Of a DNA stretch of 21,157 nt, positions 1,262 to 20,636 are shown piece by piece. Numbering within the stretch: the stretch's first letter is position 1; each line of letters starts with the position of its first letter. Origin of the DNA: a virus; UHGV virus genome UHGV-0323647; one strand, written 5' to 3'. The notes beneath the pieces were generated by a model. The model was not told the DNA's origin. It saw only the letters and a program-made list of their open reading frames with translations, and did not search any database. Position numbers and translations under genes: made by a program.

Positions 1262-1684
1262 ATGGCGACTGAACCAAAAGCTGGTCGCCCCTCTGATTAT
1301 ATGCCGGAGGTGGCTGACGATATCTGCTCGTTGCTTTCTTCTGGCGAAAGTTTGCTGAAAGTATGTAAGCGTCCTGGTATGCCGGATAAGTCCACTGTTT
1401 TCCGCTGGTTGGCAAAGCATGAGGATTTTCGCGACAAGTACGCGAAGGCAACTGAGGCACGAGCTGATTCTATTTTCGAAGAGATATTCGAAATTGCTGA
1501 CACTGCGATTCCAGATGCTGCTGAGGTGGCAAAGGCAAGACTTCGCGTTGATACCCGCAAATGGGCGCTGGCCCGAATGAATCCCCGTAAGTATGGCGAC
1601 AAGGTAACTAACGAGCTTGTCGGTAAGGACGGCGGCGCAATTCAGATTGAAACATCACCGATGAGCACTCTATTCGGAAAATGA
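1262..1684 (+). CDS. terS: terminase small subunit (Sf6 gp1-like TerS)
   Basis: Product MATEPKAGRPSDYMPEVADDICSLL... matches my recollection of the Sf6-type small terminase (about 140 aa). Two in-frame ATGs at 1256 and 1262; I chose 1262. Stop overlaps the terL start (ATGA at 1681-1684). Confidence 0.85.
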   Translation: MATEPKAGRPSDYMPEVADDICSLLSSGESLLKVCKRPGMPDKSTVFRWLAKHEDFRDKYAKATEARADSIFEEIFEIADTAIPDAAEVAKARLRVDTRKWALARMNPRKYGDKVTNELVGKDGGAIQIETSPMSTLFGK

Positions 1685-3096
1685 CCTCGATTAATCCTAT
1701 CTTTGAACCGTTCATTGAGGCGCATCGCTACAAAGTCGCCAAAGGCGGTCGAGGTAGCGGTAAATCATGGGCAATTGCGAGGCTGCTTGTTGAAGCGGCG
1801 CGTCGGCAGCCAGTGCGTATTCTCTGCGCTCGTGAACTGCAAAACAGTATCAGCGATTCGGTAATCCGGCTGCTTGAAGATACTATCGAGCGTGAAGGGT
1901 ATTCGGCTGAGTTTGAAATTCAGCGTTCAATGATTCGCCATCTCGGAACGAACGCTGAATTCATGTTCTACGGCATCAAAAACAACCCAACGAAGATTAA
2001 ATCGCTCGAAGGCATTGATATCTGCTGGGTGGAAGAAGCGGAAGCGGTAACAAAGGAATCGTGGGATATCCTGATACCAACCATCCGCAAGCCGTTTTCC
2101 GAAATATGGGTGAGCTTTAACCCGAAGAACATCCTCGACGATACCTATCAGCGATTCGTTGTAAACCCTCCTGATGATATTTGCCTGCTGACGGTGAACT
2201 ACACCGACAACCCGCACTTTCCTGAAGTTCTCCGTCTGGAGATGGAAGAGTGTAAACGCAGAAATCCGACACTATATCGTCACATCTGGCTTGGTGAGCC
2301 AGTGAGCGCAAGTGACATGGCAATCATCAAACGTGAATGGCTTGAAGCCGCAACCGATGCGCACAAGAAACTCGGATGGAAAGCGAAAGGCGCTGTTGTT
2401 TCTGCGCATGACCCATCAGATACAGGGCCAGATGCTAAAGGTTATGCATCGCGCCACGGTTCGGTTGTTAAGCGCATTGCCGAAGGTCTGCTGATGGATA
2501 TCAACGAGGGTGCTGACTGGGCTACTTCGCTGGCAATTGAAGACGGCGCTGACCATTACCTGTGGGATGGTGATGGCGTCGGTGCGGGCCTACGCAGACA
2601 GACAACGGAAGCGTTCTCCGGCAAGAAAATCACCGCCACGATGTTCAAGGGCAGTGAATCGCCATTCAATGAAGATGCACCGTATCAAGCCGGAGCATGG
2701 GCTGATGAAGTCGTACAGGGTGACAACGTTCGCACTATTGGCGATGTATTCCGCAATAAGCGAGCGCAATTCTATTACGCGCTGGCTGACAGGCTGTATC
2801 TGACATATCGGGCGGTTGTTCACGGTGAGTATGCAGACCCCGACGACATGCTGAGTTTCGACAAAGAAGTGATAGGCGAGAAGATGCTGGAGAAGCTGTT
2901 TGCAGAACTGACGCAGATTCAGCGCAAATTCAATAACAACGGGAAGCTGGAGCTTATGACTAAGGTCGAAATGAAGCAGAAGCTCGGTATTCCATCTCCT
3001 AACCTGGCTGATGCGCTGATGATGTGTATGCATTGCCCGGAGTCGGCTGCGCAACCCGACTATTCCAGTTACTCAATTCCTTGTGGTGTAGGTTGA
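1681..3096 (+). CDS. terL: terminase large subunit (TerL: ATPase plus nuclease)
   Basis: 471 aa. Walker A P-loop KGGRGSGKS near the N-terminus. Size and position immediately after terS and before portal are typical; translationally coupled to terS. Confidence 0.93.
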   Translation: MTSINPIFEPFIEAHRYKVAKGGRGSGKSWAIARLLVEAARRQPVRILCARELQNSISDSVIRLLEDTIEREGYSAEFEIQRSMIRHLGTNAEFMFYGIKNNPTKIKSLEGIDICWVEEAEAVTKESWDILIPTIRKPFSEIWVSFNPKNILDDTYQRFVVNPPDDICLLTVNYTDNPHFPEVLRLEMEECKRRNPTLYRHIWLGEPVSASDMAIIKREWLEAATDAHKKLGWKAKGAVVSAHDPSDTGPDAKGYASRHGSVVKRIAEGLLMDINEGADWATSLAIEDGADHYLWDGDGVGAGLRRQTTEAFSGKKITATMFKGSESPFNEDAPYQAGAWADEVVQGDNVRTIGDVFRNKRAQFYYALADRLYLTYRAVVHGEYADPDDMLSFDKEVIGEKMLEKLFAELTQIQRKFNNNGKLELMTKVEMKQKLGIPSPNLADALMMCMHCPESAAQPDYSSYSIPCGVG

Positions 3097-3097
3097 T

Positions 3098-5296
3098 ATG
3101 GCAGAAAAAAAGATGACTGACTGGCATCGCAAGGTGCTGTGCAACTTTGATAATGCCTGGTCAGCAACGCAGGATATGCGTGAGCAGATTATTGAGGCTC
3201 AACGTTTCGTCAGGGTGTCCGGCGCACAGTGGGAAGGCAGCACAAACGCTGGTTACTCATTTGATGAAGGCAGGTTTGAGCATTATCCGCGTTTTGAACT
3301 GAATAAGATTGCCCGTGAATGTGATCGCATCATTGGCGAGTATCGACAGAATCGCATCAGCGTTAAATTCAGGCCGAAGGACGATAAGGCATCGGAAGCG
3401 TTAGCCGAAAAGATGAACGGCAAATTCCGCGCTGACTATCAGGAAACATCCGGTGGCGAAGCGTGTGATAACGCATTTGATGATGCTGTAACGGGCGGAT
3501 TCGGTTGTTTCCGCATGTGTGCCGATTACGAAGATGAAATGGATCCGAGTAACGAGCAGCGCCGCATCAGCCTTCTTCCTGTTTACGACCCAGCAACATG
3601 CGTCTTCTTCGATCAGGACAGCAAGCAATATGACCGCTCTGATGCTATGTGGGCTATGGAAATGTTCTCCATGACGCCCAAAGCGTTCGAGGCTGAATAC
3701 CCTGATTCCACCGCGGCAAGCCTTTCTCGTGATGACACTGGCACTCAATATGACTGGTCAACGCCCGATGCCATCTATGTTGGACGCTACTACGAAGTTC
3801 GCATAGAGAAGGTGAAGCTCACGGCGTGGCGCAACCCTGTTAGCGGAGAAACGGCAATCTATGATGAAGAGCAAATCAAAGATATTGTCGACGAGCTAAC
3901 CGATGGCTCATTCGAACTGATTGGCGAGCGAACGGTGAAGAAACGCCGAGTTTATTGCGGTCTTCTGTCTGGCGCTGAATGGCTGGAAGAACCGAAGCGT
4001 ATTCCGGGTGAACATATTCCTCTCATCCCGGTATATGGGCGTCGCTCATTTGTTGATAATCAGGAGCGAATCGAAGGCCACGCAGCAAAAGCGATGGATG
4101 CACAGCGTCTTGAGAACCTGATGGTTTCCATGATTGCAGATAACGCTACTCAGGCTGGCGGTGATGGCATTCCTATCGTGGATGTTGATTTCATTCCCGG
4201 TCCATTAATGAATCACTGGGCAGAGAGGAATAAGAAAAGACCTGCAGTTCTTCCCATGACCAGCAAGAAGGACAAAAACGGAACGGTCATTTCAGAGGCT
4301 CAGGTTGCTGGCTGGACACCTCCGACACAAATGCCACCTGCTCTTGCCGGGCTATTGCAGTACACCGGAACGGCTATTCAGCAAATTACAGGTGCGTCGC
4401 AGCTTGAGAACATGCCGAGCAACGTCGCTACCGATACCGTTGATAGCATCTTTAACCGGATGGATACGCAGTCCTATATCTACATGGACAACATGGCTAA
4501 ATCCATGCGTCGCGCTGGCGTTGTGTGGCTTTCTATGGCGCGTGAGGTCTATGGCAGTGATACGCCGATGCGTATCGTTAATGAGGACGGCAGCGATGAC
4601 GTGGCGCTGATGACTGGTGAAGTGGTTGACCGTCAGACAGGGCAGGTTATCGCGCTTAACGACCTTTCGCAGGGCAACTATGAAGTGACTGTCGATGTCG
4701 GTCAGTCGTTCGCTACTCGCCGTGATGCAACTGTTAAGTCGTTACTTTCCATGCTGGCACTTATCCCACCGGGAACGCCGAAGCACGACCTTGTATCGTC
4801 GATGATTCTTGACAATATGGACGGCGAAGGGATGGACGACCTTAAAGAATACAACCGCAATCAGTTGCTTCTGTCTGGAGTTATCAAACCGAGAACGCCA
4901 GAAGAGCAGCAGATGGTTGAGCAGGCGAAACAACAACAGGCCAGTCAGCCAGATCCGGCTATGGTTGCTGCGCAAGGTCAGCTTCTTGCTGGTCAGGCTG
5001 AATTGCAGAAAGCGCAGAACGAGCAGGCAGCCATTCAGGTTAAAGCATTCCAGGCACAGACTGATGCTCAGGTTGCAGCGGCAAACGTTGTGAAAATCCT
5101 CGCATCTGCTGATAGCCAGCAAAAATCTGATATCCGTGAGGCGCTGAAACTGCTCGGACAGTTCCAGCAACAGCAAGGAGATAATGCCCGTGCTGATGCA
5201 GAGCTTGTCCTGAAAAGTCAGGCACAGGGCCATGCGCAGCGCATGGACATCAGCAGCATCCTGCAAAAATCAACTCAGCAACAACCACAGCAGTAA
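3098..5296 (+). CDS. portal protein (P22 gp1-like)
   Basis: 732 aa ORF starting 2 nt after the terL stop. Size matches P22-type portals (about 725 aa). Long Gln/Ala-rich helical C-terminal extension as in the P22 portal barrel. Confidence 0.92.
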   Translation: MAEKKMTDWHRKVLCNFDNAWSATQDMREQIIEAQRFVRVSGAQWEGSTNAGYSFDEGRFEHYPRFELNKIARECDRIIGEYRQNRISVKFRPKDDKASEALAEKMNGKFRADYQETSGGEACDNAFDDAVTGGFGCFRMCADYEDEMDPSNEQRRISLLPVYDPATCVFFDQDSKQYDRSDAMWAMEMFSMTPKAFEAEYPDSTAASLSRDDTGTQYDWSTPDAIYVGRYYEVRIEKVKLTAWRNPVSGETAIYDEEQIKDIVDELTDGSFELIGERTVKKRRVYCGLLSGAEWLEEPKRIPGEHIPLIPVYGRRSFVDNQERIEGHAAKAMDAQRLENLMVSMIADNATQAGGDGIPIVDVDFIPGPLMNHWAERNKKRPAVLPMTSKKDKNGTVISEAQVAGWTPPTQMPPALAGLLQYTGTAIQQITGASQLENMPSNVATDTVDSIFNRMDTQSYIYMDNMAKSMRRAGVVWLSMAREVYGSDTPMRIVNEDGSDDVALMTGEVVDRQTGQVIALNDLSQGNYEVTVDVGQSFATRRDATVKSLLSMLALIPPGTPKHDLVSSMILDNMDGEGMDDLKEYNRNQLLLSGVIKPRTPEEQQMVEQAKQQQASQPDPAMVAAQGQLLAGQAELQKAQNEQAAIQVKAFQAQTDAQVAAANVVKILASADSQQKSDIREALKLLGQFQQQQGDNARADAELVLKSQAQGHAQRMDISSILQKSTQQQPQQ

Positions 5297-5386
5297 TTAA
5301 CCCATAACGTGCAATGGCTGTCTTTATGAGGCCTGGCACCCTATTGCCTTCCGATGGGCTGAACATCGAGTAAACAGGGGTAACAA

Positions 5387-6280
5387 ATGGACCAGATGGC
5401 AGAAAACACACCAGAAGTTGAAATCGAAACCGACGCGTCAGAGCAGATTCCTGATGATGTCGAACTGGCTGAAGAAGTCGAAACAGAAGATGGCAGTGAG
5501 TCCTCTGGCAATGATGCAGAGGAAGCTACTGAAACTGATGACGACGAATCAGAACAGGAATTCTACTTTGGTGACGAAAAGCTGGATTCGCCAACCAGCG
5601 AAGATAGCGCAGAGCATGGACTGGTAAAACACCTGCGCAAGACGATTAAAGAGAAAGACCGTGAGCTGAAAGAGCTGATGCGTCAGTCTCAGAAACCCGT
5701 CGAGCAGCAGCCGGTAATCACTCAACCACCGCGAATGCCAAAACTGGATGATGAGGACATCGGTTTCGATGAAGAAATCTACCAGCAACGCATGGCTAAG
5801 TGGGCAGAGGATAACGGCAAGTACCAGCAACAGGAGATGGCTCGCAAGCAGAAGGAGCAGGAGCTTCAGGCTGCCTATCAAGAGCGATTATCCAAATATC
5901 AGCAACGTGTTAAGGCTCTCAAAGTTCCTGGCTATCAGGAAGCTGAGCAGGCCGTACTCGAGGAAATCCCCATCGAGACACAAAACGCGATCCTGTTTGA
6001 GTCAGAGAAGCCGGAAATCGTTGTTCTGGCGCTCGGTCGCAACGCTGAACTGCGCAAGCAACTGGCAGAAGCTACCAACCCCGTAGCAATTGGTCGTCTG
6101 CTGGAACGTATCGAATCGAAGGCCAGAATCATGCCAAAAGCAAAAACCACGGCAGCCACAACCCCGACAGTTAAGGGGAGCAACGGCGCAGTAATCAACA
6201 ACCTCGACAAACTGAAAGCCAAGGCGCTGGAAACTGGTGACTGGACGCCGTATTTCGCCGCTAAAAAGGCAAAAAAATAA
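5387..6280 (+). CDS. scaffolding protein (P22 gp8-like)
   Basis: 297 aa, highly acidic N-terminus (many D/E), charged helical middle, basic C-terminal tail (...FAAKKAKK). Sits between portal and coat. Confidence 0.85.
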   Translation: MDQMAENTPEVEIETDASEQIPDDVELAEEVETEDGSESSGNDAEEATETDDDESEQEFYFGDEKLDSPTSEDSAEHGLVKHLRKTIKEKDRELKELMRQSQKPVEQQPVITQPPRMPKLDDEDIGFDEEIYQQRMAKWAEDNGKYQQQEMARKQKEQELQAAYQERLSKYQQRVKALKVPGYQEAEQAVLEEIPIETQNAILFESEKPEIVVLALGRNAELRKQLAEATNPVAIGRLLERIESKARIMPKAKTTAATTPTVKGSNGAVINNLDKLKAKALETGDWTPYFAAKKAKK

Positions 6281-6298
6281 CCTATCGGAGCATTAAGC

Positions 6299-7552
6299 AT
6301 GGCTAACCAATTAGCAAAAGACCTTGAAATCATGTTCGAAAACTACGTTGAAGGCTTTGAGGCCGCCTGCGTAGTTTCCCGTAACGCTAAAAAATTCCGT
6401 CCCGGTGATACTGCAATGCAGCGAGCAGGTGATGTTCTGTATCGTCCGCAGCATTACCACATGAACATTGAAGAAGGCCTCGATCTCAGCAGCAAAACAC
6501 CAACAGCACTGGTTCAGCGCCTTGTTCCTTCTGTGTTCAAGGAGCCGAAAAACATTCTGTACACTCTGGATGCGCGTGAAATGCGTGACCCTGAACATAA
6601 AACTGAAGCTGGTCGCGCCGCAGGTATGCGCCTTGCTGCACAGATTGACTCTGACCTGATTTCCATGGTTACGCAGCGTGCTACTAACGTGATCACGATG
6701 GCTGACTCAACCACAGGTTCACAGGGCCGTGATTTGTGGAACTGTGCGGCAGGTATTGATGCCACTATGACGGCGATTGGTGTACCGCAGGGTATCAACC
6801 GTCGCTCTTTCTGGAACCCCTTCAACTACAAAGACCTTGCTGGCGAGCTTGGTCACCGTGCCTATGCTCAGGGTGCAACCCTGACAGCATACGAAAAAGC
6901 GCAAATCCCTCCGGTTGCGTCCTTCGATAGCTACAAGACCGATATTTCTGGTCGTGTTCCGAAGGGTACAGCAACTTCCATTGCGCTGGCAGCAGCACCT
7001 GCGCACAAGGTTGAAGCGAAAGATGCTAACGATATGCCAGTGGATAACCGACAGGGGACCATTACGGTATCTGCTGAAGGTTTGCAGGTTGGTGATGCGT
7101 TCACCATCGCAGGGGTGAATTCCGTACACCAGATCACCAAAGATACCACCGGGCAGCCGCAGGTATTCCGCGTTCTGGCAGTAAGCGGAACGACAGTAAC
7201 TATCTCCCCGAAAATTCTGCCGCCTGACAACGCGGATGTCGCCAGCCGACCATATGCAAACGTTGATGCTAACGCGGCAAATAGCGCAGCAATCACCATT
7301 CTCAACAAGAACGCAGCACCTGCTAACCTGTTCTGGGCTGATGGTTCTGTTGAGCTGATGTACGGCAAACTGGCGTTCCCGACTGGTCAGGGTCCACAGG
7401 TAATGACAGCAACCACCGAGCAGGGCGCTACGCTGATCATGTCTTACGCCTTCGACCACATCAAAGGCGTAACCACTGCTCGTTTCACCACTCTGTATGG
7501 TTGCTCTGTACTTGTTCCTGAATATACGGGCATCGTTATTGCCGGGCAGTAA
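6299..7552 (+). CDS. major capsid (coat) protein (P22 gp5-like, HK97 fold)
   Basis: 417 aa ORF with GGAG 10 nt upstream of ATG 6299. Position after scaffold and size close to P22/Sf6 coat (about 420-430 aa). Followed by an intrinsic terminator. Confidence 0.9.
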   Translation: MANQLAKDLEIMFENYVEGFEAACVVSRNAKKFRPGDTAMQRAGDVLYRPQHYHMNIEEGLDLSSKTPTALVQRLVPSVFKEPKNILYTLDAREMRDPEHKTEAGRAAGMRLAAQIDSDLISMVTQRATNVITMADSTTGSQGRDLWNCAAGIDATMTAIGVPQGINRRSFWNPFNYKDLAGELGHRAYAQGATLTAYEKAQIPPVASFDSYKTDISGRVPKGTATSIALAAAPAHKVEAKDANDMPVDNRQGTITVSAEGLQVGDAFTIAGVNSVHQITKDTTGQPQVFRVLAVSGTTVTISPKILPPDNADVASRPYANVDANAANSAAITILNKNAAPANLFWADGSVELMYGKLAFPTGQGPQVMTATTEQGATLIMSYAFDHIKGVTTARFTTLYGCSVLVPEYTGIVIAGQ

Positions 7553-7557
7553 TTTTG

Positions 7558-7582
7558 GTGGGGCTTCGGCCCCATTTTTATT
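7558..7582 (+). terminator. rho-independent terminator/attenuator just after the coat gene
   Basis: GGGGC-TTCG-GCCCC hairpin (7560-7573) followed by ATTTTTATT, 8 nt after the coat stop codon. Confidence 0.6.
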
Positions 7583-7593
7583 GGGAGAAGACA

Positions 7594-7782
7594 ATGGCAC
7601 GAACAATGCTCTATAAGCCTGGCAACATGATCACCTGTGGTCAGTTTGCTGTCGATTACATCATTGTTGATGACGAAGAAGTTAAATCTCACCTGAAAAA
7701 AGGTTGGGTAAAAACTCCTGAAGAAACCGCAACGAAGCAAAAAGTGGCTAAGGCGGAAGAAGATGGCGAAAACGAAGGGTGA
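7594..7782 (+). CDS. small hypothetical virion-module protein (62 aa)
   Basis: ATG at 7594 preceded by GGGAGAAG. The ORF-track start at 7555 (no ATG there; first in-frame ATG is 7594) lies inside the terminator hairpin and is unlikely. Acidic C-terminus. Overlaps the next gene by 20 nt. Confidence 0.5.
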   Translation: MARTMLYKPGNMITCGQFAVDYIIVDDEEVKSHLKKGWVKTPEETATKQKVAKAEEDGENEG

Positions 7783-8224
7783 TCTCGTTCTAAAGGCTTT
7801 ACGAAAAGCCGGGCTGTATTCCAATGCCACGTTGACAGATGCTGACCCTCAGGCAATTGAAGATGCTATTAATGACCTCGAAGACATGATGGCAGCATGG
7901 CAGGCGAAAGGTATCGAGCTTGGGTATCAGTTTGCTGATACAGAAAACGGCATCATGCCGTTACCTGACGATGATTCAGGTATCCCTGCATGGGCAAATG
8001 ATGGCGTCGCTTTGAAACTCGCTGTGCAAGTGTGCATGGATAACGTCATTCAGCCATCAGACGCTCTCCTTACCGCTGCTGACAGTGCATATCAAACAAT
8101 CTGTATCGCTTTAACCAAAATACCACCACTTGAGCGGCGAAATGACATGCCTCGCGGTAGTGGTAACAAAAGCGCGTTTACGTGGAATCGGTTTTACATC
8201 GAGAAAGATGATCCGAGTACGTGA
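7763..8224 (+). CDS. head-completion / tail-adaptor protein (P22 gp4-like)
   Basis: 153 aa. N-terminus AKTKGDLVLKALRKAG...TLTD...DLEDMMAAW and C-terminal ...MPRGSGN... resemble P22 gp4 as I recall it. Correct position after coat. Confidence 0.85.
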   Translation: MAKTKGDLVLKALRKAGLYSNATLTDADPQAIEDAINDLEDMMAAWQAKGIELGYQFADTENGIMPLPDDDSGIPAWANDGVALKLAVQVCMDNVIQPSDALLTAADSAYQTICIALTKIPPLERRNDMPRGSGNKSAFTWNRFYIEKDDPST

Positions 8225-8233
8225 GGTGAATAA

Positions 8234-9652
8234 ATGCCGATTCAGCAACTTCCGCTTATGAAAGGCGTCGGCAAAGACTTTCGAAACGCCGACTATATCG
8301 ACTATCTGCCAGTGAATATGTTGGCTACACCAAAAGAAATCCTTAACAGCAGCGGATATCTTCGCTCATTCCCGGGCATTGCCAAACGTTCTGATGTGAA
8401 CGGCGTATCGCGCGGCGTCGAGTACAACATGGCGCAGAGTGCTGTTTATCGCGTGTGTGGTGGGAAGCTCTACAAAGGCGAAAGTGAAGTCGGTGATGTT
8501 GCCGGAAGTGGTCGCGTATCAATGGCGCATGGTCGGACATCTCAGGCTGTAGGCGTTAATGGTCAACTGGTCGAGTATCGCTATGATGGCACGGTTAAAA
8601 CCGTCTCAAACTGGCCTACTGATAGCGGATTCACTCAGTATGAGTTAGGTTCAGTCCGCGACATTACACGCTTACGTGGGCGTTATGCGTGGTCAAAAGA
8701 CGGCACGGATTCATGGTTTATCACTGACCTTGAAGACGAATCGCATCCTGACCGTTACAGCGCACAATATCGCGCAGAATCGCAGCCGGACGGTATCCTC
8801 GGCATCGGAACATGGCGAGACTTCATCGTCTGCTTTGGTTCATCGACGATTGAATATTTTTCCCTGACTGGGGCAACCACCGTTGGTGCCGCTTTGTATG
8901 TCGCACAGCCATCTCTTATGGTGCAGAAAGGCATTGCCGGAACTTACTGCAAAACGCCGTTTGCTGATTCCTATGCGTTTATCAGCAATCCGGCAACAGG
9001 TGCTCCGTCTGTATACATCATCGGCTCCGGTCAGGTATCACCAATCGCCAGCGCGAGCATTGAGAAAATTCTCCGCTCCTACACTGCTGATGAACTGGCT
9101 GATGGCGTGATGGAATCGCTGCGATTTGATGCGCATGAGCTGCTGATTATCCATCTTCCGCGCCATGTTCTCGTGTACGACGCATCTTCAAGCGCCAATG
9201 GTCCGCAATGGTGTGTACTGAAAACAGGCTTGTATGACGATGTGTACCGCGCTATCGACTTCATTTACGAAGGAAATCAGATAACGTGCGGCGATAAGCT
9301 GGAATCGGTGACCGGGAAATTGCAGTTCGATATCAGCAGTCAGTACGACAAGCAGCAGGAACACCTGCTGTTTACTCCGTTGTTCAAAGCGGATAACGCC
9401 AGAGTGTTTGACCTTGAAGTTGAATCTTCAACTGGCGTTGCGCAGTACGCTGACCGCCTGTTCCTCTCTGCAACCACTGACGGCATCAATTACGGTCGTG
9501 AGCAGATGATTGAGCATAATGAACCGTTCGTTTACGACAAACGCGTTTTGTGGAAGCGTGTCGGGCGAATCAGGAAAAATGTTGGCTTCAAATTGCGCGT
9601 TATCACGAAGTCACCTGTCACTCTGTCTGGCTGTCAGATAAGGATTGAGTAA
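8234..9652 (+). CDS. head-completion / tail-hub protein (P22 gp10-like)
   Basis: 472 aa, the same length as P22 gp10. N-terminus [35 protein letters not shown] matches my recollection of gp10. GAGGTG upstream of the ATG. Confidence 0.9.
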
Positions 9653-10500
9653 TGGCGGATTCGAATCTCAATGTGCCGGTAATCATCCAAGCTACGCGGC
9701 TCGATACATCAGTTCTTCCACGCAATATCTTCTCGCAGTCATATCTGCTGTACGTTATCGCACAGGGTACTGATGTTGGTAACGTGGCGAACAAGGCCAA
9801 CGAGGCCGGACAGGGCGCTTATGATGCACAAGCCAGGAACGATGAGCAGGATGTGATTCTGGTCGATCACGAAATTCGACTGGCATCGGCTGAAGCGAAG
9901 ATTCAGGACCACGAAACAAGGATCACTAACGCAGAAGCGGCGATAGTCGGCCTTGATTCACGATTAACGACAGCAGAAAACGATATTGATTACCTGACTG
10001 ATGAAGTTGTCGCCATTCAAAACACGCTTTCCGACCATGAAACGCGCATCGATGCTCTGGAGTATGCCACTACTCGCAAGAAGTCAGAGGTTGTTTACTC
10101 TGGTGTATCTGTAACCATCCCGACAACGCCGACCAACCTTGTTAGCCTGCTGAAAACGCTCACGCCGTCATCCGGCTCGTTGACACCATTCTTCGACACC
10201 GTTAACAACAAGATGGTTGTGTTCAACGAGAACAAAACGCTGTTCTTCAAGCTGTCTATTGTCGGGGCGTGGCCCAGCGGAACCGCCAACAGGTCAATGC
10301 AGCTAACCTTTTCCGGCTCTGTTCCTGACACGTTGGTCAGCAGTCGTAATGCGGCGACAACAACCGACAACATCCTGTTAGCTACGTTCTTCAGCGTGGA
10401 TAAAGACGGCTTTCTTGCCACAAATGGCAGTACGTTAACCATTCAGTCGAATGGTGCGGCTTTTACTGCCACAACCATCAAGATAATCGCGGAGCAGTGA
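9652..10500 (+). CDS. tail needle / cell-envelope-penetrating protein (P22 gp26-like, with C-terminal knob as in Sf6-type needles)
   Basis: 282 aa. N-terminus [43 protein letters not shown] matches the gp26 hub-binding tip. Heptad-like coiled coil with repeated DHETRI. Start overlaps the gp10 stop (TAATG). Confidence 0.85.
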
Positions 10501-10955
10501 TGATTCAGTTCAAACCAACGCGAAACATCGACCTGATAGAAGCCGTGGGAAATCACCCAGACATTATCGCCGGGAGCAACAACGGTGATGGATACGACTA
10601 CAAACCTGATTGCCGTTACTTTGAGGTGAACGTGCACGGGCAGTTCGGCGGCATTGTTTACTATCAGGAGATTCAGCCGCTGACATTCGATTGCCACGCC
10701 ATGTACCTGCCAGAGATTCGCGGCTTCAGCAAGGAAATCGGGCTGGCGTTCTGGAGATACATTCTGACTAACACCACCGTTCAGTGCGTCACATCGTTCG
10801 CTGCACGCAAATTCCGCCACGGGCAGATTTACTGCGCAATGATTGGCCTTAAGCGTGTAGGAACCATCAAGAAATACTTCAAAGGCGTGGATGACGTGAC
10901 GTTTTACAGCGCCACACGCGAAGAACTAATCGACTTCCTGAATCACGGGAGATAG
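10500..10955 (+). CDS. gp14-like virion/ejection-associated protein
   Basis: ATG at 10500 overlapping the gp26 stop (TGATG), with GGAG 5 nt upstream. The ORF-track start at 10497 is a GTG. Position corresponds to P22 gene 14. Confidence 0.75.
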   Translation: MIQFKPTRNIDLIEAVGNHPDIIAGSNNGDGYDYKPDCRYFEVNVHGQFGGIVYYQEIQPLTFDCHAMYLPEIRGFSKEIGLAFWRYILTNTTVQCVTSFAARKFRHGQIYCAMIGLKRVGTIKKYFKGVDDVTFYSATREELIDFLNHGR

Positions 10956-10957
10956 CC

Positions 10958-11650
10958 ATGTTATATGCATTTAAACTGGGCAGAAAACTGCGCGGTGAGG
11001 AACCTTATTGCCCTGAAAAAGGCGGGAAAGGTGGCAGTTCTGATAAAAGCGCAAAGTATGCAGCAGAAGCTCAGAAGTATGCCGCAGACCTGCAAAATCA
11101 GCAGTGGCAGACGATCATGAAAAACCTTGCTCCGTTCACGCCTCTTGCGGAGCAGTATGTTAACCAGCTTCAGAACCTTTCCAGTCTAGAAGGTCAGGGG
11201 CAGGCACTTAATCAGTATTACAACTCTCAGCAGTATAAAGACCTTGCAGGTCAGGCTCGTTACCAGAGTCTTGCTGCTGCGGAGGCGACGGGTGGACTTG
11301 GTTCGACAGCCACAAGCAATCAACTGGCTACGATCGCGCCGACACTAGGTCAGTCTTGGTTATCAAATCAGATGAGCAATTACAACAATCTGGCAAACGT
11401 TGGGCTTGGTGCGCTGCAAGGTCAGGCAAACGCCGGGCAGACGTACGCCAACAACATGAGCAGCATTGCACAGCAAAGCGCAGCTCTTGCCGCTGCTAAT
11501 GCCAATAAACCATCAAGTCTTCAGACTGCAATTAGCGGTGGCACGTCTGGTGCGATTGCCGGTGCAGGTCTTGCCAGCCTTTTGGGAACATCAACACCTT
11601 GGGGCGCTGGAATTGGTGCTGGTATCGGATTGCTTGGCTCGTTGTTTTAA
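10958..11650 (+). CDS. ejection (internal virion) protein, gp7-like
   Basis: 230 aa. N-terminus MLYAFKLGRKLRGEEPYCPEKGGKGGSSDKSAKYAAEAQKY and Gly/Ala-rich hydrophobic C-terminus (...GAGIGAGIGLLGSLF) match P22 gp7 as I recall it. Confidence 0.75.
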   Translation: MLYAFKLGRKLRGEEPYCPEKGGKGGSSDKSAKYAAEAQKYAADLQNQQWQTIMKNLAPFTPLAEQYVNQLQNLSSLEGQGQALNQYYNSQQYKDLAGQARYQSLAAAEATGGLGSTATSNQLATIAPTLGQSWLSNQMSNYNNLANVGLGALQGQANAGQTYANNMSSIAQQSAALAAANANKPSSLQTAISGGTSGAIAGAGLASLLGTSTPWGAGIGAGIGLLGSLF

Positions 11651-11659
11651 GGGGTAATC

Positions 11660-12967
11660 ATGGCTACTTGGCAAGGAACAAACGGCGGATTGTTGGCTGG
11701 TATCGGCGGCGTCAACTCAAACGCTCCGAGCGTAAATGACATCGGCAATACGCTTCAGCTTATCAGGCAGAACAATGATATTGAGCGTTCAGGCGCTAAC
11801 AATGTTGGGCTGACTGCTTTGCAAGGTCTTCAGCAGGAAAAGCAGGCTCAGCGGCAGAAAGAATTTCAGCAGGCGTACGCTAATGCTTATGCGTCTGGTG
11901 ATCGCGGTGCTTTGCGTCAGTTGGCTACTCAATATCCAGACCAGATTGAATCCGTTCGTAAAGGCATGGGATTCATTGATGAAGATCAGCGTAATTCTAT
12001 CGGCACCTTAGCGGCTGGCGCACGCCTTGCGTCATCGTCTCCAGAAGCAATGCAATCATGGCTGCAAAACAACGCCAAGGAACTGACTCGCGTCGGTGTT
12101 GACCCTAATAACGTTGCTCAGATGTATCAGCAGAATCCTTCAGGATTTGGTGAGTTTGTTGATCACCTTGGAATGGCTGCGCTTGGTCCGATTGATTACT
12201 TCAATGTTCAGGATAAGATGGCAGATCGCCAGCTGACCATGCGCGGTCAGGATCTGAACTCGCAAACCGCCGCCCGGAATCAGGCAATCACAATGCGTGG
12301 GCAAGATATCCAGGCAAATTTAGGTCAGCAGCGCATTAATCTGGACGCAGAAACAAACCGCATTAACTACGAAAATAAGCGCCTTGACCGGATGCTATCA
12401 GCAGAAACTAACGACCTGAAGCGCCAGGAAATACAGAGCCGCATAGCAGCCAACAACCAGAAGTTGCAGCAGAAGCAGCAAGAGCTAAATGATGGCTACA
12501 AAGACGGCATCAACACTCTCACAACCAGCATGTTCACTCTGAACGATATCGTTAATTCTCCTGCACTTAAGAGCATTACAGGCTTACGTGGAGCAATCCC
12601 CAACGTTCCAGGCTCACAAGCTGCAGACACTCAGGCGCGACTTGATACCTTTAAATCCCAAGCATACCTGACAGCGGTTCAGGCCATGAAAGGACTTGGT
12701 GCACTTTCTGATGCCGAGGGCAAAAAGCTCGACCAGGCTGTTGGTTCGCTGCAGAACTCGCAGAGCGAGGAGTCCTTTCGTCGCAACGCTGGCGTCATCC
12801 TGAACACGCTCAACCAGAAGCGTAATGAGGCGGTTGGTAAGTACGTTCAGCAAAACGGTATCAAGCGAGTGGAAGCGCCTCAGGCTTCTATAGATTACCT
12901 GAAGCAGCACCCCGAGCTGTCAATCGACTTCATTAATCGCTACGGATATCTTCCATCTTTGGGGTAG
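11660..12967 (+). CDS. ejection (internal virion) protein, gp20-like
   Basis: 435 aa, Gln/Asn-rich low-complexity helical protein, second of three consecutive ejection-protein genes. GGGG upstream of the ATG. Confidence 0.7.
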   Translation: MATWQGTNGGLLAGIGGVNSNAPSVNDIGNTLQLIRQNNDIERSGANNVGLTALQGLQQEKQAQRQKEFQQAYANAYASGDRGALRQLATQYPDQIESVRKGMGFIDEDQRNSIGTLAAGARLASSSPEAMQSWLQNNAKELTRVGVDPNNVAQMYQQNPSGFGEFVDHLGMAALGPIDYFNVQDKMADRQLTMRGQDLNSQTAARNQAITMRGQDIQANLGQQRINLDAETNRINYENKRLDRMLSAETNDLKRQEIQSRIAANNQKLQQKQQELNDGYKDGINTLTTSMFTLNDIVNSPALKSITGLRGAIPNVPGSQAADTQARLDTFKSQAYLTAVQAMKGLGALSDAEGKKLDQAVGSLQNSQSEESFRRNAGVILNTLNQKRNEAVGKYVQQNGIKRVEAPQASIDYLKQHPELSIDFINRYGYLPSLG

Positions 12968-12970
12968 TAA

Positions 12971-15601
12971 ATGGCTAATTACCGTGATTTGTTAGAGCAG
13001 GCTGGCGCACGTTACGGTGTGCCAGAAGGGTTGATGACTGCACTGGGTGCCAAGGAGTCTTCTTACAACCCTGCAGCAGTAAGCTCCTCCGGGGCTGTAG
13101 GATTGACTCAGGTCATGCCTGGGACATGGCGTGATATGGGTTATACCGATGAGCAAATGCAAAACCCCGAATATCAGGCTGACGCTGGCGCGCGCTATCT
13201 GGCAAAGATGTACCAGCAGTTTGGTAACTGGCGTGACGCTCTTCAGGCTTATCACGACGGTCCCGGCAACGTTATGAAGGCAAAGCGTGGTGAATATACG
13301 CCAGGACCTGAAGGCCGCGGTTACGTTGATGATCGCTTTGCTCAATGGGCGGGTGACCCGGTGACAGACTCAACAGTCGAACAGCGCGCCACCTCTGCAA
13401 AGGTACATCCTCAGCAAGACCCTAACAACCCGTTTGCACAACTGGAAGTACAGTCATCCGAACAAGTATCGGCATCAGGTGTGCAGTCAGACCCAAATAA
13501 TCCATTTGCTCAGATTGAGCAGCAGGCAGCCAGTCAGCAGCCACCTCAACCCGTAAGTTCTGTCGCACCGAAACCTGTTCAGCAACAAACAGTTAATCAG
13601 GCCAATAATGAACCAGCACGTGAAGAACCATCATTGATGCAACAAGCTGGCGATTGGCTCACAGGTGGTCAAAGTGCAGGGCAAATTGCAGAGCAGGCTG
13701 GTCGTGGTCTGGTAAACATACCATTTGACGTATTGCAGGGTGGCGCAAGTCTGATTAATGCAATCAGCCAGGGGCTTGGTGGCCCCAAGGTTTTGGATGA
13801 TGTTTATCGTCCAGTAGATCGACCGACAGACCCCTACGCGCAAGCCGGTGAAACAATTGGCGGGTATCTCCTGCCAATTGGTACAGCGGCAAAAGCTGCT
13901 GGAGCGCCAGCAAAGCTCGCTGGAGATATCGGTTCCGCAGGAAACATGATTGCAGGTTCTCTTGCTGATGCTGCAAATCAGGAGGGCGACTTTGCACAAA
14001 ATGCTGCCATTAACGGTGGTATCAATATTGGTGCTCAAGGCGTTCTTTCAGGTGTCGGGCGCGTTATTGCGCCAAGGGTTTCACATGCTCTTGGTGGTGC
14101 AGCACTGAATTCTGCTAATGATGTTTCCAGGATGGCAAAGTCAGGTGCTGGGCGTCAGTCAATTGCCAGTCAGGCCGCTAATGTGTCCGAAGGTGTAGCA
14201 AAAGCGGCTGAGTCTGCTGGAATTGATATAAACGCATTAACACCAGGAATGCGATCTGGAAGTCGTGGAATTGCACAAGCCGAAGGCGCATTGGCATCAA
14301 CACCAGGAATTGTTCAGGACGCCCATCAGACAGCATTTAACGAAATATCATCAAAGTTAAGTCGAAACCTTGATGAATTTGGGGCCGCATCTGGAACGGC
14401 ATCAGAAAAAAGTGCGGCTATAAAACAAAGGATTCTTCAAAATCTTGATCAGATGAAGGATGCCGAGCGCGCGGCATGGGATGACGTGCGGTCAACAATG
14501 CCAAATCAAAAAGCAAGAATGCTAAATGGTAATGCCGTTATTCAGGCAGAGCGATCTGCTGGCATACCGCTTACTCCTGAAATGAAACAGTTTGTTCAGG
14601 CAAACAATCAAGGTGGAGTAACATTTGATGGCATGAAAGCATGGAGAGCGAAATTTGCTGATGCGGAGCAAAAATATAAGCGTAGCGGAGAGGCAAATGC
14701 GGCAAGGAGAGCAGGGGAAATACGCCGGGCAATTACTGATGATATGCGCACAATGGCGGAAAACGGCGGATTTCTTGATGACTGGCAGAAAGCTAATGAT
14801 CTGTCTAAAGCGAGGTTATCAGCACAAGAGAGTGCAGAGTCTGTTTTCGGGCGTGATTTGGCAACAGATGCACTGATTACGAATGGAGTAAAATCCCTTC
14901 AATCATCGTCAGCTAAAGGTCTTAATGGTCCTGCTGGGTTCCATTCTATGATCCGCGCGCTGCCAGAATCAGAGCGTGTTCCTGCTATATCATCAATGTT
15001 GCAAGATGCTATCTCGCATGGTGTACGTGGTGGCAAAGCTGATGCAGCAGGAATTAACCATATCGCAGGGATACTTACCCCACAAAATGTAAAAGCCATT
15101 AGCAGATATTCCTCAGATCTCGGAAGAATTGCTGATGCATATGGCACTCTTGCAAGAGCAGCAGTGAAACCTCAGCAGTATATTGAAAGAACAGGGAGAA
15201 CTGCCAATGTACTACGCGATCTGGATGCTGGTTTATCCAACGTCACATCAACAGTGTTAAATGCAATTGCCAACTCAACATCAGGTGCCATTGTTGGTGG
15301 AGCAGGAGGGGGCATTGCAGGCGCTGCCGCAGGTGCTTTAGTTGGCGCCGGGTTAAAAGGTGCTGTATCTAAAATTGCCACCACACGTAGTGGTCGGTAT
15401 GCGATAGAGAAAGCAGTTCAGGAAGCAACTAAAGCAGTAAGAGCAGGCGGAAGTAAAGAAGCATTAGCGGCGGCGGAACGCAGATTTATGGCAAATAAAG
15501 CTGCCGTAAAAGCGATACGTGATACAGTCGGAAACGAAGAGTTCAATCGCTTAGCGAGGGCTGGCATTGTAGCGTCGCTAAGCGGAATAGCACAGGAGTA
15601 A
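12971..15601 (+). CDS. ejection (internal virion) protein, gp16-position, with N-terminal lytic-transglycosylase (SLT)-like domain
   Basis: 876 aa. The N-terminal roughly 110 aa carry SLT-family motifs (GAKESSYNP with candidate catalytic Glu, [18 protein letters not shown]). The remainder is Ala/Gly/Gln-rich with a hydrophobic Gly-rich segment ([22 protein letters not shown]). Confidence 0.8.
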
Positions 15602-15925
15602 TTAATCATCCATGGATGGATTGAGCTTATCTCGTGTTGATGTGGCGATTTGTCCTACATTTCTAAGCCAAGATTTCAAATCCTTGATATTGTCATTGAT
15701 TTCATGAATATCTTCTTTTTTTAATCTTTTAACATTATTTTCAATAATTTCAATGGATTGCTCAATATCAGATATAGTGAATGATAGTTTGTTCTTCTCA
15801 TCTTTTATTGAGTTTTTAAGTGCTTCGTTCTCAGTCTTGAGGTCAGATATCTTTTGTTTTAAAGATGCCAGTTGGTACTGAACCACAATGAGTGCGATAG
15901 CTATCACGATAACTGTTGTATACAC
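15602..15925 (-). CDS. small membrane-anchored coiled-coil protein (107 aa), unknown function; candidate exclusion/abortive-infection factor
   Basis: GTG start at 15925 preceded on the - strand by AAGGAGG (complement of 15931-15937) with a 5-nt spacer. N-terminal hydrophobic helix YTTVIVIAIALIVVQY, then a K/E-rich helical region. AT-rich. Stop codon directly abuts the gp16-like stop (convergent, zero spacer). Confidence 0.65.
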   Translation of the reverse strand: MYTTVIVIAIALIVVQYQLASLKQKISDLKTENEALKNSIKDEKNKLSFTISDIEQSIEIIENNVKRLKKEDIHEINDNIKDLKSWLRNVGQIATSTRDKLNPSMDD

Positions 15926-16245: not shown

Positions 16246-16299
16246 GCAACTTGACACAGTTGTATACATAGCTGCGGCTATCAAGATGGAGGTATGTTT

Positions 16300-16743
16300 A
16301 TGCTCACTTGTTTTGATGTCGCCGACTACTTCTTGGCGCATTGCGATGAAGAAAGTGGCGACATTATCTCTAACCTAAAAATTCAGAAGTTGACGTATTA
16401 TGCCCAAGGGTTTTCTCTGGTTCTTCTGGGTAAGCCGCTATTTAATGAGAAAATTGAAGCCTGGATGCATGGGCCAGTAGTTCCTGAATTGTATCGTAAA
16501 TATAGGGACTGTGGTAACGGAGCTTTACCTGCGCCAGAAAACTTTGACGCTAAAAAATTCAGTGAAGATGAAATTGAATTGCTGGATGAGGTGTATAAAG
16601 TTTATGGTCAGTTTTCTGCCTGGAAACTGCGCAATATGACTCACGAAGAGCAGCCATGGAAAGATGCTTACATTGAGGGTGCGGTTAGCCAAGAAATCAC
16701 ACTTGATTCTATGAAAGGTTTTTTCAAAACGTTAATTAACTGA
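16300..16743 (+). CDS. Panacea-domain (DUF4065, SocA/GepA-like) protein; putative antitoxin/immunity component
   Basis: Segment NLKIQKLTYYAQGFSLVLLGKPLFNEKIEAWMHGPVVPELYRKY matches the conserved core I associate with DUF4065/Panacea proteins. GGAGG at 16288-16292 sits 7 nt before ATG 16300; the ORF-track ATG 16294 is only 1 nt after the SD. Confidence 0.7.
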   Translation: MLTCFDVADYFLAHCDEESGDIISNLKIQKLTYYAQGFSLVLLGKPLFNEKIEAWMHGPVVPELYRKYRDCGNGALPAPENFDAKKFSEDEIELLDEVYKVYGQFSAWKLRNMTHEEQPWKDAYIEGAVSQEITLDSMKGFFKTLIN

Positions 16744-16748
16744 CGTGT

Positions 16749-17171
16749 ATGTCTAGAGTTAAGGGAAGAATAAAACAGAGGGATAAAGAGAGCTCTGCTA
16801 CTGTTGGCCTCTCTATCCATCACGAATCTCATGATGTAGACAAAAGTCCGCCTGTATTTTCTCTTAGATACCTACAAAAGGGGTATTGCCTAGATTGCTG
16901 CCAAAAGCATGAAAAGGCAGCATTTGCAGATAGGCTGTTCAGGTTAAGTCAGATGTCATGGGATGAGATACGAAAATCTGATAAACACGGGCTTGGGACG
17001 GAAAAAATTGCCAGAAACGCGATAAAGGCTCCGATTCCTAAGCATGTTACTCAAGATGTGGATTTCATTGCGTTCAGATTTTGCTCTAAGGCACCTATGG
17101 TTGGTTATAAGATAGGAGCCACTTTTTATGTCTTATGGCTCGACAGGGAGTTCAAGCTATACAAGCACTAA
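16749..17171 (+). CDS. hypothetical protein (140 aa) co-operonic with the Panacea-like gene; candidate toxin/effector partner
   Basis: ATG 5 nt after the upstream stop with no SD of its own, suggesting translational coupling. No recognised domain. Basic N-terminus, CLDCC cysteine cluster, C-terminal strand ...GATFYVLWLDREFKLYKH. Followed immediately by an intrinsic terminator. Confidence 0.6.
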   Translation: MSRVKGRIKQRDKESSATVGLSIHHESHDVDKSPPVFSLRYLQKGYCLDCCQKHEKAAFADRLFRLSQMSWDEIRKSDKHGLGTEKIARNAIKAPIPKHVTQDVDFIAFRFCSKAPMVGYKIGATFYVLWLDREFKLYKH

Positions 17172-17211: not shown

Positions 17212-17331
17212 ATGATTTACCCATCAAACAACCCACCAGTTTGCCTGATTGGATGCCAGCCTTGCAGTTTTTATGGAATTAATTATGCCATGCTCAAGAG
17301 CCTTGTTAGCATCCAAAATGGTCGAGTCTGA
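17212..17331 (+). CDS. questionable small ORF (39 aa) with strong RBS; may be the 5' part of a frameshifted/decayed gene
   Basis: AAGGAG at 17201-17206, 5-nt spacer, ATG 17212. Product [39 protein letters not shown]. Overlaps long open frames on both strands that lack credible starts. Confidence 0.25.
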
Positions 17332-17614
17332 TATCAGGGATGCCCACCTAATATGGGTTCCGATGTCGATATTGAACGTCTCAACGAAGCGATCAAGATC
17401 GTTATCGAGGCATTTCCCGTACTCTCTCAATCTGGCATGGTCGGCGGCTGGGGAGGCAAAGCCCCATAATAGAGGATGTAACAGGAATCTTGATAATGGG
17501 TTTGCGAAACGTTCTGAGCCAGACGGACCAACGAATCTTTCCGCATGGATGAGACTTAAGAATAAAGAATTACCTCCTTCAGTTCATAACTACTGACAGA
17601 TAACCAACGCAACG

Positions 17615-19476: not shown

Positions 19477-19506
19477 ATGAGAGGCGGGTAGCCGCCTCAT
19501 TTTTTG
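19477..19506. terminator. bidirectional intrinsic terminator shared by convergent tailspike and acyltransferase genes
   Basis: AATGAGAGGCGG-GTA-GCCGCCTCATT hairpin followed by TTTTT on the + strand. The minus-strand acyltransferase stop codon lies inside the stem. Confidence 0.7.
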
Positions 19507-20636
19507 ATGAATCTGTACTCTACATACTTAAACGTGTATGCAGTGACAATTGTTGTAATAGATACAAGAGATAGTATAAGCGTCCAAAATCCAACGGCAG
19601 ATATATTATTTAAATTGAATATAAAGCCAATAAATTTTATAACCAATGCGTTAATTATTAGGTGAAGAAGATAAGAGCTATAACTAGCCTCGCCAAGATA
19701 GACAAGAGGTTTAAATGTGAAAACGGAAGGCTTTGTCATTACAATTACATTAAATAGGAGAGTGGTTATTAAAAACCTTTCCCATCCATATCCGCTAAAC
19801 ATCGTGTAAAGTAAGTAAATAATAGTTAATGCTGAAGCAGCGGAAAAGAAATTGTTTGTTATCTTATTGCTACTTAACATTACAGATACCATTTTCATCC
19901 TATTGAAAAGAATGGCAGACAAAGCTCCAGATATAAAATAAACCCAAACAACCTGCCCAGAATACAAGTCATTTGCTGCATATCCAACTGAGAGCACAGA
20001 ACCGATAACTGCAATTGATTTGAATCTAATAGCTGCACATATCACTGGAAGCATGCAATAGAATTTCCATTCATATGGAAGTGTCCATATCACCGCGTTT
20101 AATGAGTAAGTCCTGAATCCATTCACCCATATATCACTTCCGAAAAATCCAAAGCCAAATAGATTTATTGCCTGCCTTGCTGTTGTAGTTAAATCCTGAC
20201 CACCATGCGACCACATCAATGTAAGAACTAGAACTATAGTTGATGCTATCATGTACATAGGAACAAGGCGTTTAACTCGAGATACGAAAAACATCTCCCA
20301 GTTAATTTTATTGCCTGTTTTTATGATCTTATCAAAGAATAAAAAACCTGTTATACAAAAGAAAATTTGCACACCAACATCACCAGCATGAGCGAAAACC
20401 CAGAAGTTAGATGTGTTAACTGATAATGGATTAAATCCATTATTTGACAGAGAAAATACAGCATGGTTTAAAACAACAAGAAGAGCCGCTATACCTCGAA
20501 TGCCATCAATATGAAGATAACGCTTCCCTGAGAAATCAATATGATTGTAAAAGTTAAAGCATACAAAGACTCTGTTTATTCCCATTGATGCCGCAAGACA
20601 TAACAAGGCAATCCCAATATTAAATAAAGTTTCCAT
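19497..20636 (-). CDS. oac: integral-membrane Acyltransferase-3 family protein; likely O-antigen O-acetyltransferase (serotype-conversion gene)
   Basis: 379 aa, many hydrophobic segments. N-terminal signature RYLHIDGIRGIAALLVVLNHAVF typical of Acyltransferase-3 proteins. Strongly AT-rich. Located between tailspike and integrase, where Sf6 carries oac. The symbol is by analogy, not proven orthology. Confidence 0.8.
   Translation of the reverse strand: METLFNIGIALLCLAASMGINRVFVCFNFYNHIDFSGKRYLHIDGIRGIAALLVVLNHAVFSLSNNGFNPLSVNTSNFWVFAHAGDVGVQIFFCITGFLFFDKIIKTGNKINWEMFFVSRVKRLVPMYMIASTIVLVLTLMWSHGGQDLTTTARQAINLFGFGFFGSDIWVNGFRTYSLNAVIWTLPYEWKFYCMLPVICAAIRFKSIAVIGSVLSVGYAANDLYSGQVVWVYFISGALSAILFNRMKMVSVMLSSNKITNNFFSAASALTIIYLLYTMFSGYGWERFLITTLLFNVIVMTKPSVFTFKPLVYLGEASYSSYLLHLIINALVIKFIGFIFNLNNISAVGFWTLILSLVSITTIVTAYTFKYVEYRFIKK

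Follow-up and report, generated by a model that had tools for sequence, protein, structure and literature searches.

Stop/start packing of the virion-assembly genes in a mosaic P22-like phage and the translational coupling that it would permit

Short stop/start overlaps between neighbouring genes, together with the translational coupling that may accompany them, are textbook biology in phage and bacterial operons. The termination–reinitiation (TeRe) gene pairs of Escherichia coli and Haloferax (Huber et al. 2019, 2023) are co-directional, overlap by -4 (ATGA) or -1 (TGATG or TAATG) and have been tested with reporters; all of the native E. coli pairs with -4 and -1 overlaps that were tested are tightly coupled by termination–reinitiation, the addition of about 20 nt of distance abolishes the coupling (PMC6728339, PMC10666635), and pairs of the +9 to +12 class are more likely to initiate independently (PMC10666635). 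In phage f1, it has been established experimentally that a downstream gene without a usable Shine–Dalgarno (SD) sequence adjoins the upstream stop codon (PMC12548453), and in the Bacillus phage SPP1 gene 1 and gene 2 (terS and terL) share an AUGA overlap without a ribosome-binding site (RBS), an arrangement that is proposed by its authors to be one that 'possibly allows' coupling (PMC6316719). The late operons of the phages Sf6, CUS-3, HK620 and P22 stand closest to the DNA treated here, and in P22 the late genes are expressed as a single transcript (record annotation; PMC2629481). In this study, the module from terS to gp16 of the UHGV virus genome UHGV-0323647 was compared with these systems over a stretch of 21,157 nt, which is referred to in full as the window. 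The stop/start overlaps and few-nucleotide gaps of this module are best explained as packing inherited within the phage family, with the module falling into three translational blocks, to which we assign a probability of roughly 0.6. As read from the sequence, the overlap geometry would permit translational coupling without demonstrating it, and coupling is most plausible for the DNA-packaging genes.

Judged by gene content and order, the window holds the late virion-assembly genes of a mosaic P22-like phage (Lederbergvirus, Sf6/CUS-3 type), and it has in common with Sf6, CUS-3, HK620 and P22 the gene order and families, the coat-distal hairpin and a small open reading frame (ORF) that overlaps gp4. 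From terS to gp16, the distances between consecutive genes (negative values are overlaps) are -4 (terS/terL), +1 (terL/portal), +90 (portal/scaffold), +18 (scaffold/coat), +41 (coat/small ORF), -20 (small ORF/gp4), +9 (gp4/gp10), -1 (gp10/gp26), -1 (gp26/gp14), +2 (gp14/gp7), +9 (gp7/gp20) and +3 (gp20/gp16), so that 173 nt of the 14,340 nt of the module are non-coding (~1.2%, or about 99% coding). The geometry is identical to that of CUS-3 at 11 of the 12 junctions, the exception being gp20/gp16, and to that of Sf6 and HK620 at terS/terL, gp10/gp26, gp26/gp14, gp14/gp7 and gp7/gp20. P22 itself differs, with distances of -23 for 3/2 (GTG start, strong SD), -1 for 2/1, -1 for 8/5, -41 for 4/10 and +3 for 10/26. 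The description of such packing in the first-pass annotation as typical of phage late operons holds.

The -4 and -1 pairs of the window resemble the TeRe pairs in direction and overlap, and the terminase and the portal/gp4/gp10/gp26 neck are protein complexes, which can be likened to the products of TeRe pairs. The TeRe pairs have been tested with reporters, however, whereas those of the window were recognised in the sequence, and the +9 junctions of the window belong to the class judged likelier to initiate independently. The SPP1 terminase is named as similar to terL in the Sf6 annotation; SPP1, however, is a siphovirus of Gram-positive bacteria whose sequences are only distantly related, and coupling there is likewise a proposal. 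The f1 case may serve as a model for terL and portal, although f1 is a different type of phage without homology to the window.

The five junctions that had been listed from the letters alone (terS/terL, terL/portal, gp4/gp10, gp10/gp26 and gp26/gp14) were re-read in the sequence, and the coordinates of each are exact (Table 1). The term 'pervasive' was too strong, since stop/start overlaps occur at three of the 12 junctions, together with one 20-nt overlap. When a junction is counted as tight if it shows a -4 or -1 overlap or a distance within about -8 to +6 nt, half of the junctions (6/12) are tight, namely terS/terL, terL/portal, gp10/gp26, gp26/gp14, gp14/gp7 and gp20/gp16, and the six from portal/scaffold to gp4/gp10 and at gp7/gp20 are not; the scaffold and coat genes are set apart by their 90-, 18- and 41-nt spacers and a hairpin. 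The motifs alone are not beyond chance, as any TGA or TAA stop would produce each overlap about once in 16. What does exceed chance, on the evidence of the sequence comparisons, is that the overlapped ATGs each open long ORFs with full-length family matches and that the geometry recurs in 76–82 of 76–84 loci. In density, the six junctions within -8 to +6 nt compare with 24% of all unidirectional pairs in E. coli, a marginal difference (binomial p=0.04; E. coli figures from PMC10666635), and there is no enrichment over the early regions of P22, in which 19 of 35 junctions lie within the same interval (Fisher p=1.0). In the P22 early-right operon 13/15 junctions overlap. Tight packing is thus not a trait peculiar to the morphogenesis module, because the non-morphogenetic early regions of P22 are at least as tightly packed.

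The conservation of the junctions was followed in 84 related loci mapped for the same 13 genes; 80 of these are IMG/VR contigs selected on the basis of gp10, and the others are the four annotated phages. The terS/terL junction is the -4 ATGA overlap in all 44 Sf6-type loci and is -23 in P22-type loci, gp10/gp26 is -1 in 82/84 loci, and gp26/gp14 is -1 in 76/76 loci across three unrelated needle 3' ends, with the stop codon alternating between TGA and TAA; the homology of each needle type ends exactly at T[G/A]ATG, beyond which gp14 stays conserved. At terL/portal, five unrelated junction sequences are found among the relatives, all at distances of -1 to +2, and the last ~55 nt of terL change type together with the portal. 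The window itself carries at 3041–3096 a recombination boundary between Sf6-like and CUS-3-like sequence, which is placed ~55 nt before the end of terL and not at the gene border, so that the portal type is accompanied by the C-terminal ~18 residues of TerL. In distant phages that share the terL family, terS, terL and portal are still tight with other geometries, such as -1 and +2 in Acinetobacter phage AB_SZL3 and -14 in Edwardsiella phage PVN06. The overlap of the small ORF with gp4 measures -17, -20, -23 or -26 in four types, always in the same relative frame; the position of the small ORF is conserved in all P22-like types, and its protein has diverged to about 26% identity. The long near-consensus SD TAAGGCGG (7747–7754) precedes the gp4 ATG in all four types, by 8 nt or, in P22, by 7.

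The gp20/gp16 distance is +3 here, versus a -1 overlap in 64 of 71 relatives; gp20 ends in the window as TAG-TAA-ATG (12965–12973) and in the closest relative (locus L045) as CAG-TAA-ATG, so that the shift from 0 to +3 arose because a single C-to-T change (CAG to TAG) created an earlier stop. The 90-nt spacer between portal and scaffold is specific to the CUS-3-type portal, and the Sf6 and P22 types have 13 nt. It contains a 19-codon ATG mini-ORF (5314–5373), the TAA of which lies exactly 13 nt before the scaffold ATG, which is the portal-stop spacing of the Sf6 and P22 types; this mini-ORF, without an SD and out of frame with portal, is a probable relic.

SD strength was estimated by a duplex-energy scan in kcal/mol, for which the background median at internal ATGs is -2.5. 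The terL gene has no canonical SD, only GGA at 1676–1678, 2 nt from the ATG (dG -1.9 to -3.5), and portal has the weak SD TAGGT (dG -3.9), whereas all of the other genes carry a properly spaced SD with dG between -5.4 and -8.4 (-5.8 to -7.4 for gp26, gp14, gp7 and gp16). Long overlaps (-14 to -41) are always accompanied by strong SDs. The initiation regions of scaffold and coat, whose opening energies rank at the 6th and 10th percentile, are the most accessible in the operon; those of terL, portal and gp14 lie at the 23rd–41st percentile, and that of gp26 is the most closed of the 16 starts, with a predicted opening energy of 11.2 kcal/mol (81st percentile). No convincing plus-strand promoter was found in 1681–15601, where promoter-like hits are fewer than in shuffled sequences, and the fold of the 90-nt portal/scaffold spacer does not differ from shuffles. 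There is only one strong plus-strand hairpin inside the module, at 7557–7576 and thus distal to coat; the Sf6, HK620 and P22 records mark a putative terminator or stem-loop at this site, and the position and shape of the hairpin are conserved, with a sequence that differs among the four coat types.

We infer that the module would be expressed from a single transcript and that downstream translation may depend on upstream termination. The whole module is presumed to be transcribed as one long antiterminated mRNA. In the first block, terS–terL–portal (-4, +1), most of the translation of terL and portal would be carried out by ribosomes that finish the preceding gene and start again, termination–reinitiation being most likely because neither gene has a usable SD, and reinitiation of this kind would hold the amount of each downstream protein at or below that of the upstream protein. 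The scaffold and coat proteins are the most abundant products and are needed in the largest numbers. Their genes form the second block, which is clearly uncoupled by its spacers and, with its hairpin, good SDs and open initiation regions, would be translated independently at a high rate, and the 90-nt portal/scaffold spacer would break any chain of termination–reinitiation. The third block runs from the small ORF through gp4, gp10, gp26, gp14, gp7 and gp20 to gp16 (-20, +9, -1, -1, +2, +9, +3), and each of its genes has an SD of its own, located within the preceding gene or directly behind it, so that de novo initiation is possible throughout; where the distance is -1, +2 or +3, reinitiation would contribute a coupling that is partial and not obligatory. 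A stricter version of the first block can be offered only tentatively and is rather more doubtful than the division into blocks: terL and portal of the Sf6/CUS-3 type may lack any functional RBS and be made only by reinitiation, giving a fixed output of terS > terL > portal, with the junction and the final ~55 nt of terL passing along with the portal type as a single unit of recombination.

Several observations weigh against coupling as part of this explanation. Ten of the 12 downstream genes have their own SD, and independent initiation can explain their expression; SD strength does not differ significantly between the tight and the spaced junction types (Mann–Whitney p=0.11); and the 100-nt folds around four tight junctions are indistinguishable from those of dinucleotide-shuffled sequence (z -1.0 to +0.6). 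In the searchable literature, no expression data were found for any P22-like phage, and no direct evidence of coupling or polarity for the P22 late operon. In P22, genes 3, 2, 1, 10, 26, 14, 20 and 16 were defined by amber mutants as separate complementation groups, and therefore upstream nonsense mutations do not abolish the product of the next gene, at least in P22. The last argument is tempered by the strong SDs at most of the P22 junctions in question.

Three other explanations of the packing were considered. The overlaps could be artefacts of start choice, the true starts lying upstream or downstream of the overlapped ATGs, and a mechanical ORF list does offer GTG 10497 for gp14 and ATG 1256 for terS. 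GTG 10497, however, would itself produce a 4-nt overlap, and this codon is GTA, CTG or TTA in the relatives, in which ATG 10500 is the only start that is conserved; terL has no alternative in-frame start ahead of its conserved domain; and 1262 is the equivalent of the second ATG, at which the Sf6 annotation begins terS. The curated Sf6, HK620 and CUS-3 annotations, the solved full-length Sf6 gp1 and gp2, which match terS and terL from residue 1, and independent gene calls on an identical ENA contig (with gp14 called as 151 aa) all concur, and an artefact is very improbable. The gene identities first proposed for terS, terL, portal, gp4, gp10, gp26 and gp14 are likewise confirmed by family matches and by the annotation of the relatives, and the start codons chosen for them were correct. 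If the starts are real, coupling might still operate by RNA unfolding, in which finishing ribosomes open a sequestered downstream RBS and new 30S subunits initiate there. This mechanism is well documented elsewhere (review PMC12548453), and the high opening energy of the gp26 initiation region would suit it. The folds at the four tight junctions are like those of shuffles, however, which leaves this form of coupling without support; the initiation regions of terL, portal and gp14 are not unusually closed, and at a spacing of -4 to +1 the terminating ribosome occludes the start site, which favours reinitiation (PMC12548453). We consider unfolding improbable.

A more serious competitor, although still an unlikely one, is that the overlaps reflect pure compaction or mutational drift, the compatible codons ATGA, TAATG and TGATG having been fixed in a headful-packaging phage selected for small size, with de novo initiation at every start. 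Overlaps that are as common or commoner in the P22 early regions, as in the early-right operon, agree with this explanation, as do the ten genes with their own SD and the lack of special structure at any junction, and the relative-specific CAG to TAG change in gp20 took its junction from 0 to +3 without any hint of constraint. Compaction does not account for terL and portal, which are essential yet without a usable SD, or for the five unrelated terL/portal sequences that keep -1 to +2 and the three unrelated needle ends that keep -1, which look like maintained proximity, and the tested native E. coli -4 and -1 pairs were all tightly coupled (PMC6728339). Inherited packing in three translational blocks is thus preferred here. 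Its practical value lies in the confidence that it gives in the start codons and gene boundaries of the assembly genes of a mosaic phage. If terS–terL–portal were obligately coupled, engineering such as terminase or needle swaps or cargo insertion would have to keep the junctions intact, and nonsense or insertion mutations in terS would be expected to lower TerL and portal; neither consequence alters current understanding.

Table 1. Genes, spacers and junctions of the virion-assembly module, numbered from the first letter of the window.
Feature	Position	Strand	Description
terS	1262..1684	+	small terminase, Sf6 gp1 type, 140 aa; stop TGA 1682-1684; Pfam Sf6_terminase 1e-44
terS/terL	1681..1684	+	ATGA, -4; terS stop TGA 1682-1684, terL ATG 1681-1683
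terL	1681..3096	+	large terminase, Terminase_3 family (Pfam), 471 aa
terL/portal	3094..3100	+	TGAtATG, +1; terL stop 3094-3096, portal ATG 3098
portal	3098..5296	+	732 aa, CUS-3 type; Pfam P22_portal 8e-170; 97% identical to CUS-3 portal
portal/scaffold spacer	5297..5386	+	90 nt
scaffold	5387..6280	+	own SD (CAGGGG)
coat	6299..7552	+	own SD; 18-nt spacer after scaffold
UUCG-loop hairpin and T-run ('t coat' stem-loop)	7557..7576	+	directly 3' of coat stop
small ORF	7594..7782	+	62 aa; position of Sf6 gp6, HK620 hkbT and P22 orf69; phrog_1175 9e-29; 20-nt overlap with gp4
gp4	7763..8224	+	head-tail adaptor, 153 aa; Pfam P22_Tail-4 7e-41
gp4/gp10	8222..8236	+	+9; gp4 stop TGA 8222-8224 within gp10 SD (TGAGGTGA); gp10 ATG 8234; dG -7.0
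gp10	8234..9652	+	head closure, 472 aa; Pfam Phage_stabilise 6e-300
gp10/gp26	9639..9654	+	SD TAAGGA 9639-9644 inside gp10; TAATG 9650-9654, -1; stop TAA 9650-9652, ATG 9652-9654
gp26	9652..10500	+	tail needle, Sf6-type knob, 282 aa; Pfam Phage_tail_NK 2e-106; PDB 3rwn, 2poh
gp26/gp14	10491..10502	+	SD GGAG 10491-10494 inside gp26; TGATG 10498-10502, -1; stop TGA 10498-10500, ATG 10500-10502
gp14	10500..10955	+	151 aa, DUF2824; Pfam 1e-53
gp7	10958..11650	+	ejection protein; own SD
gp20	11660..12967	+	ejection protein; own SD
gp16	12971..15601	+	ejection protein, 876 aa; own SD

The 21-kb window corresponds to the right-hand portion of a P22-like podovirus late operon. In a megablast search with the window, 378 phage records were matched, the top phage matches being Escherichia phage Huey, CUS-3, Sf101, Sf6 and HK620 at 91–96% identity over 29–65% of the window each; the best complete E. 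coli genome covers 68% of the window, the maximum for any record, and the ENA metagenome contig ERZ27298378 k119_115078 carries an identical stretch. By Pfam and PHROG matches, the genes run in the order Rz (partial), three small ORFs, terS, terL, portal, scaffold, coat, the 62-aa ORF, gp4, gp10, gp26, gp14, gp7, gp20, gp16, a moron region, the tailspike and a reverse-strand acyltransferase. The order from terS to the tailspike on one strand is the same in the CUS-3, Sf6, HK620 and P22 records, and both this synteny and the nucleotide similarity to recognised members place the window in Lederbergvirus. Its proteins are 84–100% identical to those of one or another member of the genus. Protein comparison shows terS, gp7 and the gp26 needle to be Sf6-like and portal, scaffold, coat, the small ORF, gp4 and gp16 to be CUS-3-like, with gp10 and gp14 near-universal among the relatives. 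Compared in this way, the window is a new mosaic, in which Sf6-type terS, gp7 and needle knob are joined to CUS-3-type portal, scaffold, coat and gp4. No match was obtained when its full length was scanned for Rfam families and tRNAs.

The terS protein is 99% identical to those of Sf6 and HK620, its residues 1–140 match PDB entries 4dyc and 3hef, and PDB entry 4idh (Sf6 gp2) matches terL from residue 1. The ATGA at terS/terL was not taken to be a frameshift site, since TTCGGAAAATGA contains no slippery heptamer and solved structures show terL to be a complete protein in its own right. The minus-strand ORFs at 4742–5266, 6719–7606 and 2590–3054, inside portal, coat and terL, respectively, have no family matches and were treated as shadow ORFs. 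The gp16 protein has 876 aa, compared with 719 in CUS-3 and 609 in P22, and carries an N-terminal SLT lytic transglycosylase domain (residues 7–110); it is 96% identical to CUS-3 gp16 across 677 residues only, leaving an extra segment in the gp16 of the window.

Adjoining the gp16 stop, a 107-aa coiled-coil ORF (15602–15925, minus strand; hkcB-like, phrog_5962) is found at a GC content of 38–43%, compared with about 50% in the operon. The moron slot between gp16 and the tailspike is occupied by a SocA/Panacea-domain protein (16294–16743, plus strand; PF13274 2e-24), followed after 5 nt by a 140-aa ORF (16749–17171, plus strand; phrog_8366) with a weak PADLOC match to NsnC (2e-07) and, 3' of it, by a GC-rich inverted repeat with a T-run. 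On these matches, 16294–17171 may be a prophage-borne antitoxin/toxin or defence pair of the Panacea type. A 115-aa ORF with a TTG start (17249–17596, plus strand) lies between two terminator-like hairpins; it has no Pfam, PHROG or PADLOC match and was not called on the identical ENA contig, and it is probably a non-coding remnant of the ant-moron region. Directly after the tailspike, at about 35% GC, a 379-aa Acyl_transf_3 protein is encoded on the minus strand (19497–20636; PHROG O-acetyltransferase 7e-44), and because it occupies the site at which Sf6 carries its O-antigen acetylase, this acyltransferase is likely to be a serotype-converting moron.

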